Assembly (NCBI GenBank): GCA_964016885.1
Contig: OZ024742.1
Location: 367,474,001-367,538,000 of the forward strand
Source: Eledone cirrhosa
Lineage: Eukaryota
Direction of reading: 5' to 3'
Length of the DNA: 64,000 nt
Each line of letters begins with the position of its first letter. Position 1 is the stretch's first letter. Shown here piece by piece: positions 490-59,482 of the stretch. A model generated the notes under the pieces. It did not search any database. It saw only the letters and a program-made list of their open reading frames with translations, and was not told the origin of the DNA. The position numbers and the translations under genes are program-made.

Positions 490-690
490 TTAAAATAACA
501 GATTTAAGTTTAAGCAAAGAATCGTTGCTTTCACCCTTAACGGGATCTTCTGAAAGCAGCGATTCTTTGCTTAAACTTTAATCTGTTATCTTAATACATA
601 TTTGCTCTACGGTTCTTATATATTTGATATATATTTATCCTTATCGAGCCCTCTTTGGATTTTAGTCTTCAAATTTATTATTATTACTAT
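490..690. repeat. Penelope pLTR-end remnant forming a fold-back, containing a hammerhead-like motif of the CAGAAGA family
   Basis: AAGTTTAAGCAAAGAATCG...CGATTCTTTGCTTAAACTT inverted repeat; matches 47959-48120; flanked by (TA)n. Confidence 0.75.
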
Positions 691-1723
691 ATATATATAT
701 ATATATATATATATATATATATATATATATATACACGTACATATAGTGTTGTCTCTACATAGCCGCAGTTTAACATTTGTTATCAGTAAACGAATAAAAT
801 ATGTGTAGGGATATGTGAGTATGAGTGTGTGTGTGTGTGTACAAACTAAATATATATCTACGTATGTACAGTTATATTTGCCGAGATAAAATGACCAACG
901 GCTAACATCTCTACAGCCGTAATGTTCATTCCCATTTATATATATTCTCTATTACGATGACAAGTAATTTACGCAATCGAATTTAAGTCTTACTATATTA
1001 CAGCCATAATCACCATATTCTATTTCCATGTGATCGATTTGAAGAGCTCCATTAATCCATCATTGATAGGACGGCTCACGTTTCCATCCGGGTATTTCAC
1101 TCTCCATGTCAATTAACTGTCAAACATTATCACCGGTAAATGACTTGGACATCTACAAAAGTTATATTAATTTTCATATACATTTCTTTTTATTAATGCA
1201 ACAAAATGTTTGACTATGTCCCTTCTGGCTCTCTACACTATGAATCCATGTCCGCAGATGTCAACTTTTCTAGGCTAAAAACAAAGTACCAGTCATTTAC
1301 TGGTGTTGATTCTTCCTCAATCTATCTCTCCGGAATCCTAGAAACCTATCGAAGATTTTTATCAATTCATATCCACACTAGATTGTCCAGGCTAGTGTTT
1401 GACCTGTTTGTATCTATCGTTGTGGCTATATTATTGTGACAACATGATTCTGGCCACTTTATTCTTGGTGTAACAATTCCTTATCTTTTTGTGTTCACAA
1501 TGGGTAGAAATATGTCAATTCTTCACTCATTGAGTGCTTCGTGATTGCCTCTTGTAATTCGATTGTTACCTGCACAGTGCAGCTGCAACTTCGGTTATGC
1601 TTATTATTATTATTATTATTATTATTATTATTATTGTCGATAAAATAAAGTACCAGTAATGCACTGGGATATTTGCTGGCCTTGTGGCAAAAGAGGAAAC
1701 AATTATTATTATTATTATTATTG

Positions 1724-4700
1724 TTCTTTGAGTCTCAGTCAATGATGTTATTTAACTGGAAAATTTGTTGAAATGAATATCAAGCCACTACTTGCAGCCT
1801 CAGATATTCAGGGCGTATCGGAGGGTTCTTGCTGTTCCCAACAAGCATGCCTTTTGAAGTGTTCCAAAAAGCGGGGCGGGACTAATTTCCTTTAACCATC
1901 CTTGGAAACTCTTTGAGATAGTACCTAGTGCGCCTATGACAATCGGGATCACTTTGACTTCATGGCAGTTCCAAATCCTTTTTACCTCCCACTTTAAGTC
2001 CTGGTATCGGTTAATTTTCTCCCTCTCCTTCTCTTGCACTCTCGTGTCGAATGGGCAGGCTACATCCACAATCAGGCACGATCTTTTTCCCTTGTCCAAA
2101 ACCACCAGGTCAGGTCTATTGTGTTCCAGTTTCTTGTCTGTCTGTATCCTAAATCCCACAGCACCTTCACCTTATCGTTTTCCATCACCGACTATGGTTT
2201 ATGTTCATACCACTTCTCAGAATGTGGTAAATTGTTTACTTTACATAGGTGCCACTGGATCAGCTTGCCCATCACATCATGTCTCCAGCCTTTATAGTGA
2301 GTCTGGGCTAGGTGTTTACACTCGGATACAATGTGAGCCACAGTCTCTTCTCTTTCTCCACAGATCCTACACAGTGGGCTAGCCTCCTCCTTGTAAATAT
2401 AGTGTATCGGCCACTTCGTTTTGAGGGCCTGCTCTTGCGCAGCCATTAGCATTCCTTCTGTAGCCTTTTAAAGGTCTCTTTTCAACCAGTTCCATGTCTG
2501 TGGATCTCTAAATTCAGTTTTCTCAAAGAAGGTACTATGAAGGGATTTTTCATGAAGGTTGCTCTTCCTCCCTGTTGTTATTTCCTCCTTGGACATCCCC
2601 TGGCCTATTGTCCTCTCCTTCAGTACAATTCTGAGCATTGGCTCTCTACTATCAGTCACGTATTTGTGTAGGTTGTTTTTCACCATCTGAACACAGTCCT
2701 CTATGCTGATAAGACCTCTTCCACCTTCAGATCTCCTTAACTAGAGTCTATCGACATCACTCCTCTTGTGGAACATGTTGTAGATAGTCAATAGCTTCCT
2801 AGTCTTCCTATCCATTTCTTTTTGTTCAGCAACATTCCATCTTAGAATTCCCGCACTGTACCTAATAATAGACACAGCTCGGGAATTCACTGCACTTATG
2901 GCATTCCTACTGTTCAGATGTGACTTTAATACGCTCCTTACTCTCCGAATGTATTCAGATCTTGTCAATTCCTTCTTTTTTTGTTCTTGATGTCATCAGC
3001 CCCCAGAACACCCAAATACTTGTATCTTTCTTCAGTGTCAATTTCCTTTATCATCTCATCTGTTGGTACCTGGATTCCGTTTTTTCTGCTCAATTTACCC
3101 CTCTTCATCACAAGGACTCCACACTTACTAATCCCAAATTCCATACATATATCACTGCTGAAAATACGGACAGTGTCAACAAGCACATCCAACTCCTTCT
3201 CATTCTGCCCGAAGAGCTTAAGATCGTCCATGAAGAGGAGGTGATTGATGGTAAGCACTCCCTTTTCCAACTTGTATCCTGCTCTCACTTTTCGCAGTAT
3301 AATGGTCAGGGGGATGAGGGCAAGGACAAACAACAGAGGGGACAAACTATCTCCCTGGAAGATACCTCTCTTGAACCTCAGGCCTCCCAAGGATTCTCCG
3401 CCCGATGTTAACTCTGTTTTCCAGGACTTCATACTTTTGCTCAATATCTGTCTGATGTTATCTGCCATCCTGAAGATCTCTAGGCTTTTGGTTATCCAAG
3501 AATGAGGTACCATGTCGAATGCCTTTTTGTAGTCTATCCATCCCATGGCAAGACCAGTGTGTCTCCTCCTGCAAATCCTCATTACCATCTTATCAATAAG
3601 TAACTAGTTCTTTGTACCACGGGACTTCTATCGGCACCCTTTCTGTTCGTCCGGTAACAAGTTGTTTATGTGGAGGTGATGGTAGATTTCCTCAGACACA
3701 ATGCTTGTTAACAGTTTCCACATTACTGACAGACATGTGATAGGTCTATAGTTGGTAACATCATTACCCTTGATTCGGTCTTTCATTACCAGAACTGTGG
3801 TACCTTTTGTCAACCACTCTGGTACCTCACCTGACATCAAGCAGTCATTGAACATGGTTTTCAGTTTCAGGTGGAGGGATGTTATATTTTTAATCCAATA
3901 CCCCTGCACACCATCTGGGCCTGGTGATTTCCAGTTGGTTAGTTTTCTGGCCTGCCACTTAAGAGTTTCAACTGTGATACTCAAATCAGTTTGTTGGTGT
4001 GCCTGTTCACTAATCTCCTTTTGTACTGTCTGATCATTATGTTCAACATCCTGCTCCCATATTCCTCTCCAGAATGTCTTAGTTTGTTCCGCCTCAGGGA
4101 TCAAGTCGTTGCCTCTTCTTTCCCTTCAAGCTGTCCAAACATCTTCAGGTTGTTGTTAAACATGCGGTTCTGTCTATATTGACTGACTCTGCTCTCGTAT
4201 CGCCTAATCTTTGCGCTCTTTGCTACAATGCGTTGCTTCAGTTCCTCTATGATAATATTTAGCTTTTTCCTCCTAGTTTTGTACTTTATTTCCAGTCTAT
4301 TTTTATTGTCTATGTTGTGTAGTGTCCCATTCAGTAGGGACTCAAGCTTTCCAATGTCATTTCTCATTTCCCTGATTTGACCACTCAGTCGTTTCTTCCA
4401 CCAAGGTTCTGATCTTTCTTGTTTGTTGTTTCCTCTCGCTTTTATGCCAAGTAATTTCCTCACCGCATTTGCTGTTGCTTTGAGGATATTGTTGCACTGG
4501 TGAAGGTTCCTCGCCTCAAGATATGGGATGACTTTGTTTACCTTAGCTGTTGTTTCTTTTAACTTTTTCCTGTCTACAAATCTTAGGTTCATAGGTTTCC
4601 CACTATCATTGTTCAATTCATCTACCACTAAGTTTAGGATATCAACCAAATCTTGTCCTAACCCGTCAGCATTCATTTCCTCAATGGCCGTATCTTTGTT

Positions 4701-5330
4701 CCAGATGTTATTTATTTCAGCATTCAGATCATTGTCTGCTTCGGATGCTTCCTCCGTTCTCTCAACCTCTTCACCTTCATCTCCCACTGGCCCGTTTGCC
4801 TGTCATACTCCACTCTCCATTTCCAATCTAATCTCTCTGCTGAGTTCCTCCAGTTCCAGCTCGCTTATCCACCCATTAGTTCTTATTACCCGAGCCTGCC
4901 CGGCCAATTTTTGTTCATCTAATTTAAATAGACCAATCTCGTTCCAGATGCTATGCATCCGTTTCCTATAGCCTTTTTCCTTGGGGTTACTCTTCAGGTA
5001 ACATTGCATAACAGTTCTATTCAATTCTTTCGTCCAGTTGGTTCTGGTCCCTTTCCTTCTTATTCTTCCTCCAACACCAGCAGTATTTGGATGACAGCCA
5101 GGTCCCTGCTGCTGGGCCAGGGAGCACCTGCTGGGTGAGAGTCTGTCACATGACATTCCAGTCTCCACTTCACCGTTATTCGAACTGTTTAGGGTCGACA
5201 TTTAAACACTCATATGGAGGATTGGTGAATGTATGGTTACATAACAACCGGTGATTTCATCACCCCCAGTGATTTGATCATCCCCGGTGATTTTAGCGTG
5301 GCACTATCACGCTGTAGACGAACATAAATA
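1724..5330 (-). mobile_element. R4/Dong-type RLE non-LTR retrotransposon, near full length, frameshifted
   Basis: Collinear minus-strand ORF fragments 5201->1800: RT (KSPGPDG, NYRPITCL, WIDYKKAFD, IFQGDSLSP, LFMDDLKL), CCHC finger (CRICG..HIVSEC), RHD, RLE (RPDLVV..DVACP..RYQDL); 3' end abuts (ATT)n. Confidence 0.9.
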
Positions 5331-59019: not shown

Positions 59020-59237
59020 TAGCGTTTTCAAAACATTTCATCCGAATCGTATGAAATACTTTGAAAACGCTAAACAATATGTTAATAAATTGTGTTTTGA
59101 TGCATCACTGATTCCTCGTAAATATATATATATATATATATATATGTGTGTGTGTGTGTGTGTGTGTGTGTGTGTGTGTTTGTGTGTGCGTGTGTGTGTG
59201 TGTGTCTGTCTGTCTGTGTGTGTGTGTGTCTATAAAT

Positions 59238-59390
59238 CGATCCCAATACTAGGCTGGTACTTTTTTATCGACCTTGAAAGGATGAAAGTCAAAATTGACG
59301 TCGGCTGGATTTGAACTCAGACTGCAGAGATTCACAACAAATACTACAGAACATTCTATCCGACCTTCCAACGATCCTGTCAATTTTCCG
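59238..59390 (-). mobile_element. Diverged tRNA-derived SINE
   Basis: CTGGTACTTTTTTATCGACC..GGATGAAAG..GGATTTGAACTCAG. Confidence 0.7.
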
Positions 59391-59446
59391 CCCTACATTC
59401 TTGCTTTTTCTCCTCTTTCTTTCAATTTCTTTCATTTCACGTTTTA

Positions 59447-59482
59447 TCTTCTGATGAAGGATTAGTGTTCGAAACGTTAAGA
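59447..59482 (+). ncRNA. Minimal type-I hammerhead
   Basis: UCUU CUGAUGA AGGAUUAGUGUUC GAAA CG UU AAGA. Confidence 0.7.

Follow-up and report, generated by a model that had tools for sequence, protein, structure and literature searches.

Type-I hammerhead motifs of Penelope-like elements and retrozyme-like units in a 64-kb stretch of the Eledone cirrhosa genome

Minimal hammerhead ribozymes were described from Penelope-like elements (PLEs) as type-I motifs with a short stem I and a palindromic stem III, including a variant with a U3-A8 core. They form many divergent families per genome, mostly as solo copies, with opposite-strand pairs 100-700 bp apart and few copies beside a PLE open reading frame (ORF) (PMC4209133). 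[quoted passage not shown] Non-LTR retrozymes coexist with PLEs and consist of non-coding, highly self-paired tandem units of 51-972 bp and low GC content with one type-I hammerhead each (PMC7229834; 10.64898/2026.07.22.740005). Features of these three systems recur in a 64,000-nucleotide stretch of the cephalopod Eledone cirrhosa (contig OZ024742.1, positions 367,474,001 to 367,538,000), hereafter called the window. Its hammerhead motifs are real. With high probability, judged from sequence, they are type-I folds near the 3' ends of PLEs (Hydra, Neptune) and of short non-coding retrozymes likely moved by the same enzymes. The preference of the carrier elements for (TA)n tracts as insertion sites would account for the accumulation of motifs in the window, where the majority of copies are likely dead, truncated insertions.

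An earlier reading made from the letters of the window, here called the sequence-only reading, had listed 25 coordinates with complete type-I architectures and proposed about 16 unrelated families with more than 25 copies. The families are labelled U4A (sites 45780/47959/51210), 12095 (9125/12090), 16570 (16562/51787), 17078 (17036/20468), 27702 (27622/28169), 43435 (43431/43753), 58047 (8181/58006/58451), 13287, 22607, 44090 (44087), 46732 (46658), 51564 (51560), 53847 (53772), 56730 (56726), 59012 (58931) and 59451 (59447). Motifs were searched with a type-I descriptor that accepted the cores CUGANGA, UUGANAA, CCGANGA and CAGANGA, a stem I of at least 4 bp, a stem II of up to 130 nt and a stem III that was palindromic or had at least 2-3 bp. 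The window contained 20 matches, compared to a mean of 0.05-0.125 and a maximum of 1 in local dinucleotide shuffles (n = 120), and shuffled sequence thus did not reproduce the motifs. No match was obtained with the same descriptor in the reversed window sequence. Since the descriptor had been tuned after the listed sites were seen, it was run independently on other stretches of the genome, where 54 evenly spaced 10-kb stretches (539.8 kb) yielded 40 matches compared to 0-3 in shuffles. The excess over shuffles was more than 100-fold in the window and ~40-fold in the independent sequence. A motif defined by sequence only occurred 34 times in 600 kb compared to 0-4 times in shuffles. A stricter scan that required pairing at the first stem II position retained 3-7 motifs only, and an intermediate version of the descriptor, run with no shuffle control, gave 36 raw matches.

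The descriptor recovered 19 of the 25 listed coordinates and added one unlisted copy, a U4A hammerhead at 54970-55020 (minus strand, core at 55015). The six sites that failed keep a CUGANGA-type core together with GAAA and UH, and each has one weak or broken helix: stem I has just 2 contiguous bp at 17036 and 20468 and is broken at 44087, the base of stem II is weak at 27622 and mismatched at 51560, and stem III contains a G.G mismatch at 43753. Altogether, 26 cores from about 15-16 families were present in 59.5 kb, which bears out the proposed numbers of families and copies. Not all of the families are unrelated, however: 44090 and 43435 (sites 44087 and 43431) are 74.5% alike over 149 nt, and a single PLE clade comprises four of the families.

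Stems I, II and III are able to pair, as backed by covariation between families. Stem I reached at least 4 bp in 17 of 28 distinct arm pairs, those of the window included, compared to 1.6 with permuted partners (maximum 7 of 2000). In seven motifs, all from one family, the wrong GAAA had served as anchor, which makes this test conservative. Among eight relatives of the 46732 family, two-sided changes affected three of five stem I pairs, a score reached by none of 500 shuffles, a control that kinship among these relatives can inflate. The pairing of 91% decreased to 27-49% in slid controls. The covariation among genomic copies which the sequence-only reading had anticipated was therefore found between families and subfamilies, but within families near-neutral decay prevailed.

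Five of the 16 families were located in pLTRs in sense orientation to a PLE ORF, four of them in Hydra elements (U4A, 12095, 16570 and 58047) and one in a Neptune element (17078). With the three retrozyme-like families described below, this agrees with the proposed origin of the motifs from PLE terminal repeats and retrozymes of many families. A near full-length Hydra-clade PLE was present at 47135-51283 (plus strand) and ended in (TA)n. Its direct pLTRs (47135-48032 and 50372-51283) both carry a U4A hammerhead, at 47959-48009 with the predicted cut after 48004 and at 51210-51260 with the predicted cut after 51255, ~25 nt before the end of the element. The 649-aa frame between them (48240-50189, same strand) is a single short ORF with the marks of the Hydra clade, DKT, YRDD, CxCx5C and a GIY-YIG-like end; a Pfam search of this ORF gave no match. 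An RWK motif was found in the homologues P0001, P0003 and P0011, and the open frame in the window begins downstream of the place of this motif. Few Hydra families outside cnidarians are named in section 11 of PMC8557442, while the Hydra elements of E. cirrhosa include at least four abundant hammerhead families.

A second Hydra-type PLE, 5'-inverted and truncated, was located at 9110-12198 (minus strand) with inverted terminal arms at 9110-9545 and 11766-12198 and ORF remnants at 10591-11405. A U3-A8 hammerhead of the 12095 family (UUGAUAA) with a hairpin stem III lies in sense to the ORF at 9125-9218 (minus strand, predicted cut after 9130), and its inverted copy at 12090-12183 (plus strand). 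In a subfamily of 12095 seen at L069 and L147 (such labels denote stretches of the same genome outside the window), UUGAUAA is replaced by CUGAGAA, which leaves either a C3.A8 mismatch or a core that lacks one base. The 58047 family borders complete Hydra ORFs as direct repeats in L423 and L424. In the window, it is represented by a CCGAAGA (U4C) hammerhead with a mutated CAAUUG stem III at 8180-8226 (minus strand, predicted cut after 8184) and by a 5'-inverted remnant at 57966-58682 with two outward-facing U4C hammerheads, at 58005-58051 on the minus and 58450-58496 on the plus strand. Of 30 loci of the 16570 family, seven have a Hydra endonuclease that ends ~1 kb upstream, and L425 contains an inverted element. 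The window contains a 3' untranslated region (UTR)/pLTR remnant of this family at 15621-16879 (plus strand), with a CUGAAGA hammerhead that has a 101-nt stem II and a CGAUCG palindrome (16562-16697, plus strand, predicted cut after 16689). A second hammerhead of the family at 51786-51922 (plus strand) is 5'-truncated at stem I. A 234-nt direct duplication was observed within the 3' UTR of the family at 16115-16584.

The element at 16931-20620 (minus strand) was assigned to the Neptune clade, a call from motifs and not from a tree. It has 348-nt inverted pLTR arms (16931-17278 and 20273-20620), frameshifted pieces of reverse transcriptase, Zn-linker and GIY-YIG at 18566-20318, a GLPKLHK motif and a Cx4CxxC linker before the GIY-YIG domain. 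The best named homologues of its reverse transcriptase were bivalve reverse transcriptase/GIY-YIG proteins. The hammerhead at 17037-17082 (minus strand), in sense to the ORF, has a CCGG palindrome, and its inverted copy lies at 20469-20514 (plus strand); the U3-A8 core and the 2 contiguous bp in stem I distinguish this element from PLEs of the Neptune clade. The pLTR-ORF-pLTR arrangement was thus inverted in 9110-12198, 16931-20620, L414 and L425, and direct in 47135-51283, L423 and L424. The 56730 family is likely a sixth PLE-linked family, as indicated by L414 and L344; in L414 a Hydra endonuclease ends 1218 nt upstream. Its remnant in the window (56479-56966, plus strand) contains a hammerhead at 56726-56799 (CUGACGA, CAUGUG).

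Other apparent ORF links were dropped because the DNA between ORF and hammerhead was not common to the family, namely in L151 (53847), L216/L218 (59012), L195 (59451), L306/L421 (43435) and L360/L372/L376 (27702). In the loci examined, no ORF link was found for 22607, 44090, 51564 and 59451, and none that was firm for 59012. The 13287 family has a conserved unit of ~1.9 kb without a PLE ORF match. Its element in the window (12214-15623, plus strand) is longer than one unit and broken by insertions of another repeat; it contains a CUGAUGA hammerhead with a UGAUCA palindrome at 13283-13340 (plus strand, predicted cut after 13336) and a second, truncated core at 15606. Further copies comprise a CUGAGGA hammerhead of the old 22607 family (~85% identity) with a 102-nt stem II at 22602-22732 (plus strand; CGAUCG as stem III of the family), a degenerate hammerhead of the 44090 family at 44087-44127 (plus strand), the tail of which is related to the 322-nt family described below, and a solo hammerhead with the U4A core (CAGAAGA) between (TA)n tracts at 45780-45830 (plus strand). 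A CCGAAGA (U4C) hammerhead of the 51564 family with CAAUUG lies at 51559-51648 (plus strand), and a fold-back remnant of the old 59012 family with CUGAGGA and CAUAUG at 58931-59019 (minus strand). The 59451 family (old, ~89% identity) is represented by a textbook minimal hammerhead with a bulged A, G10.1-C11.1 and an ACGU stem III at 59447-59482 (plus strand).

The range given in the sequence-only reading begins at position 490. This site is a fold-back fragment of the U4A (45780) family (487-601), in which inverted and direct halves are joined in the core. Very short fold-backs with the inversion junction inside the hammerhead (stem II or core), resulting in back-to-back half ribozymes, were seen likewise at 8680-8841, 44307-44435, 54735-54826 and many other loci, those at 44307-44435 and 54735-54826 being similar to the U4A fragment. 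The hammerhead structure may favour template switching at such junctions.

The families 43435, 27702 and 53847 consist of non-coding units of 322, 547 and 543-545 nt, respectively, with one type-I hammerhead each and circularly permuted copies. The window contains 1.62 units of 43435 at 43415-43926 (plus strand) with U3-A8 hammerheads at 43431-43475 and, with a mutated stem III, at 43753-43797. The 27702 family is present with 1.74 units at 27358-28331 (minus strand) and U3-A8 hammerheads with a weak stem II base at 27622-27707 and 28169-28254. Of the 53847 family, 1.47 units occupy 53596-54379 (minus strand) with one intact hammerhead at 53771-53852 (CUAAUUAG) and an upstream copy that lacks CUGAUGA. 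The units have a GC content of 33-36% and longest stop-free frames of 54-110 codons. Folded as circles, they were far better than shuffles (z -3.2 to -7.7), and this held when the ribozyme was removed (z -4.5 to -6.5), with ten controls at +1.3 to -3.3.

When 90 loci of these families were mapped on concatenated units, some loci being two views of one insertion, copies were 0.3-3.2 units long and exceeded one unit in 55 loci. The 5' ends were scattered around the unit and lay within 10 nt of the cut in one locus only. In 84 loci the 3' end lay at either of two fixed positions, which are AT motifs that lead into (TA)n; one of the ends of the 322-nt unit is an internal TA tract and hence less sharp. 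A 5' inversion was flagged in 53 loci. The three families thus behave as non-LTR retrozymes with PLE-type ends. Insertions that are dispersed, span 0.3-3 units, end 3' at fixed sites, carry 5' inversions and target (TA)n form a signature that was not seen in the examined sections of PMC7229834 and 10.64898/2026.07.22.740005. An autonomous PLE partner with pLTR homology to the small units was not found in ~2 Mb of loci, and an apparent Neptune link of the 43435 retrozyme in L421 turned out to be a separate insertion. The 46732 family, at 46590-47109 (minus strand) with a hammerhead at 46658-46737 (CUGAAGA, CCGUCGG) and its tail again 464 nt upstream, likely represents a 464-nt retrozyme unit; this period was seen in one of six loci, that of the window. 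The tail repeats of 51564, 59012, 22607, 56730 and 13287 showed no consistent period, and no unit was derived from them.

The ends of the insertions were similar beyond the retrozymes. All 12 families examined showed variable 5' truncation, and about ten of them had two alternative 3' ends (59451 had one). The fixed 3' ends lay 20-270 nt downstream of the predicted cut and ran into (TA)n. The genomic copies thus end beyond the predicted cut, and the cut is not what defines the inserted 3' end. The optional tail was 80-145 nt long, compared to 30-40 nt in the Hydra clade (PMC8557442). Of 37 sampled motifs, 89% were followed by a (TA)5 tract within 250 nt, compared to 19% of control positions.

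Stem III formed a perfect palindrome in 13 of the 26 window copies, at family level in ~12 of the 16 window families and in 17 of 28 multi-member families. The sequence-only reading, which had most motifs palindromic, therefore holds for families and for half of the copies, but not for U4A and 12095, which have a hairpin (monomer-type) stem III. For most window motifs the stem III hairpin energy was 0 and that of the dimer -0.7 to -15 kcal/mol. The motifs had further been called minimal, which is correct for the 59451 family, an exact fit to the published consensus (PMC4209133), but overstated otherwise, as stem II spans 13-102 nt in the window and up to about 115 nt among families. In contrast to the described minimal hammerheads (PMC4209133), most families combine a palindrome of 3-4 bp with a long stem II that rarely has G-C at its base, and U4C or U4A occurs as family consensus. 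The bulged nucleotide with G10.1-C11.1 is present in 59451, and most families have U.U, C.A or another pair at this place; G-C directly at the stem II base was found in five of the 28 multi-member families (~8 allowing for a bulge). The C3-G8 to U3-A8 swap likewise occurred in five of the 28. All 26 window copies except those of the U4A family have the canonical core or the variants U3-A8 and U4C, which are already known (PMC4209133; PMC3088659). The U4A family is the most frequent one in the window, and all 48 of its incidental copies carry A at core position 4. Four sequencing runs, their contigs of unrecorded kind and informative on the presence of the family only, showed no variant at A4 among the rows displayed. 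No paper on a U4A core was found, nor a mention in the main text of PMC3088659, figures and supplements being outside the search. Among 14 incidental copies of 59012, ten had C at core position 4, three had U and one had A, and thus U4/C4 varies between subfamilies.

The inserted copies decay in a near-neutral manner, as judged from substitution patterns, and most are likely dead. In 143 incidental copies, rare substitutions affected 33 of 1305 core positions (2.5%) and 329 of 9861 positions elsewhere (3.3%, p = 0.13); 43435 had no usable majority and was left out. All 11 core bases were kept in 86 of 122 full-span copies. The changes in the 59451 family were scattered, rich in CpG transitions and without compensation. 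Some families are very young, with many copies 98-100% identical over the query.

Large contigs of the 3.0-Gb assembly, sampled evenly and not at random (GC content of the sample 36.5%), contained 74 motifs per Mb (bootstrap 46-106), a genome average of ~one per 13 kb. From this, the genome is estimated to contain ~2.2x10^5 intact-looking motifs (1.4-3.2x10^5). A looser stem III added 7 matches in 540 kb and 0 in shuffles, and the estimate is therefore probably a lower bound. A high-copy hammerhead family with a 1-bp non-palindromic stem III, absent from the window, was observed in L022, L023, L027, L041, L046 and L048. Lunse et al. in 2017 reportedly pooled ~150,000 stem-III-reduced variants over many genomes. 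The window exceeds the genome mean ~4.5-fold, and the one motif per 2-3 kb of the sequence-only reading applies locally (2.3 kb) but not to the genome. In ~2 Mb of loci, which were biased towards window families, 616 matches formed 71 clusters at 80% identity, 28 of them with at least two distinct members. A genome-wide search with 13 window families returned 462-2327 first-look candidates each, of which 40 were scored. Twelve families together made up 2.0% of a 400-kb sample, in which the U4A family alone had 17 fragments. For comparison, minimal hammerheads were counted at 2,000-9,000 per genome with a different descriptor (PMC4209133). The axolotl, with 126,247 type-I motifs, likewise exceeds 10^5, but has two families in a 28-Gb genome and ~4.5 motifs per Mb, compared to at least 71 clusters and ~74 per Mb in E. 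cirrhosa, again with different descriptors (PMC7229834).

With several intervals placed by hand, hammerhead-bearing elements account for 21.4 kb (33%) of the window, LINE-like elements for 17.4 kb, microsatellites for 5.3 kb, a 66-bp array for 4.1 kb and another dispersed repeat for 2.8 kb, with 13.0 kb lacking an assignment. A repeat finder was swamped by microsatellites, and a dust-masked self-BLAST of the window was used. The proposal that most of the anonymous DNA is pLTR or retrozyme debris is borderline: hammerhead elements constitute 58% of the sequence outside LINEs, microsatellites and the 66-bp array, or ~40% when three ORF-bearing elements are left out. The 2.0% of the 400-kb sample made up by twelve families suggests that PLE debris constitutes a visible part of the AT-rich repeats left unclassified in such genomes.

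The carriage of hammerheads by PLEs and retrozymes would fit the following route. A read-through RNA with two hammerheads would be cut at both, with a dimeric stem III where this is palindromic and possibly with help of a PLE protein, and ligation of the RNA between the cuts would yield a circle. After a nick in a (TA)n tract by the PLE endonuclease, reverse transcription would set in at either of two AU-rich sites within the unit and proceed around through the cut site, leaving inserted copies of 0.3 to 3 units. This cut-circle-reverse-transcription model is taken from PMC4209133 and PMC7229834, and two internal start sites reported in vitro for an anole PLE fit the model (PMC11167929). The anole hammerhead depends on protein and is dispensable for insertion (PMC11167929), and an uncleaved multimer is therefore possible as template; it would leave the same footprint. 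The more far-reaching version is rather doubtful: that this is the most hammerhead-dense animal genome described (~2x10^5 motifs, more than 70 families), that Hydra-type reverse transcriptases produced its retrozymes by rolling-circle copying of RNA circles, as recorded by fixed internal starts, 5' inversions and cut-site read-through, and that the A4 family of ~10^5 fragments still cleaves, probably aided by its own protein.

Several observations weigh against the PLE and retrozyme origin outlined at the beginning or against active cleavage within it. In published tests, cleavage by a minimal PLE hammerhead was weak and confined to the multimer (PMC4209133), the anole hammerhead required protein and its cleavage was dispensable for insertion in vitro (PMC11167929), and eight of nine Xenopus retrozyme dimers were uncleaved (10.64898/2026.07.22.740005). 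The U4A core and the frequent U.U and C.A at the base of stem II are expected to slow cleavage. Of the 16 families, eight lack both a firm link to an ORF and a repeatable unit period. In loci selected for their similarity, the core seemed more conserved than the flanks, and three of the five families in the incidental-copy test lean towards core conservation. Selection in place was not accepted from this lower core divergence, because loci chosen by similarity are subject to ascertainment and subfamily structure.

Among the rival explanations, it is conceivable, at a rather low probability, that the folds are inherited PLE end structures which serve mainly in protein recognition, with weak or dispensable cleavage and uncleaved linear or multimeric templates. 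The genomic copies always run past the predicted cut, one of the commonest families has the invariant A4 mentioned above, cleavage was unnecessary for PAc insertion in vitro (PMC11167929) and Naiads proliferate without canonical hammerheads (PMC8557442). On the other hand, 11 catalytic positions were kept across the 71 clusters while the stems turned over, with the reservation that the descriptor itself selects the core, and the C3-G8 to U3-A8 swap points to selection on active-site geometry. Arrays should moreover shrink by 5' truncation in each generation unless a circle restores copies longer than a unit. Clearly less probable is a spread of the small tandem families as solo pLTRs in the manner of DNA satellites, by local duplication or unequal crossover without RNA. 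Such a route was proposed for vertebrate retrozymes (10.64898/2026.07.22.740005) and some copies are 2-3 units long, but dispersed copies occur on many chromosomes (1180-1804 first-look candidates in each family) and are mostly shorter than two units. With 3' ends fixed in (TA)n, 5' ends at random and 5' inversions, they bear the marks of target-primed reverse transcription, and the satellite route is largely refuted.

A host-selected ribozyme cluster, for instance one that cuts a long transcript, would account for the density of the window, as sums of six sampled stretches never reached 20 motifs in 100,000 draws. This is nevertheless very improbable: the motifs lie on both strands, every family searched has its hundreds to thousands of candidates elsewhere, and other loci are equally dense (5-6 motifs per 6.5 kb in L414 and L422). 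Matches number 13 in the 100 kb upstream and zero in the 100 kb downstream, the window revealed no recognisable host gene, and decay is near-neutral. Chance matches in AT-rich, hairpin-prone DNA have a negligible probability. In their favour, Rfam was silent in the window at gathering thresholds (0 matches) and the descriptor was relaxed and tuned on these sites; the excess over shuffles, the cross-family covariation and the constant place near the 3' ends of elements already refute this explanation. The origin from PLEs and retrozymes thus remains the preferred one.

This kind of element is already published; the scale, the diversity, the host and the high-copy A4 family are new. The greatest gain lies in the retrozymes' PLE-type insertion signature and in the A4 family. 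No report on cephalopod hammerheads was found in the literature, with figures, supplements and subscription journals outside the search, and the words ribozyme and hammerhead are absent from the main text of a repeat annotation of Octopus vulgaris (PMC13282606). The role of PLE hammerheads and the question whether PLE enzymes move retrozymes via RNA circles are open in the papers cited here. The genome of E. cirrhosa offers both partners as young, near-identical families, full-length Hydra elements and retrozymes of 322-547 nt, and since their cut and priming sites are predicted precisely, both questions can be tested directly. It may be speculated that long transcripts are affected if a small part of the ~2x10^5 motifs cuts on read-through.

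The window contains further repeats. A 66-bp tandem array (59923-64000; 61.8 copies, 95% matches) carries a long open frame on each strand (625 and 629 aa, built from a 22-aa repeat), the Pfam matches of which are repeat artefacts. A dispersed repeat of ~190 nt without hammerhead occurs in at least 13 copies (117-313, 12762-12970, 13733-13928, 15072-15280, 22444-22602, 24329-24517, 24782-24970, 44669-44878 and others) and looks SINE-like; ARAGORN detected no tRNAs in the window. An 80/161-nt tandem repeat at 29954-30450 begins with the motif GTTCGATTC, which we take to be B-box-like, and is possibly a tRNA-derived SINE array. Two degenerate non-LTR reverse transcriptase elements (RVT_1, zf-RVT) lie on the minus strand at 1800-8023. 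Four partial tandem copies of an APE-RT non-LTR element occupy 31500-43413, with a 735-aa open piece at 36982-39189 (minus strand) and a zinc-knuckle ORF at 39895-40968. The best named relative of a LINE protein in the window is from Argonauta hians (62%).

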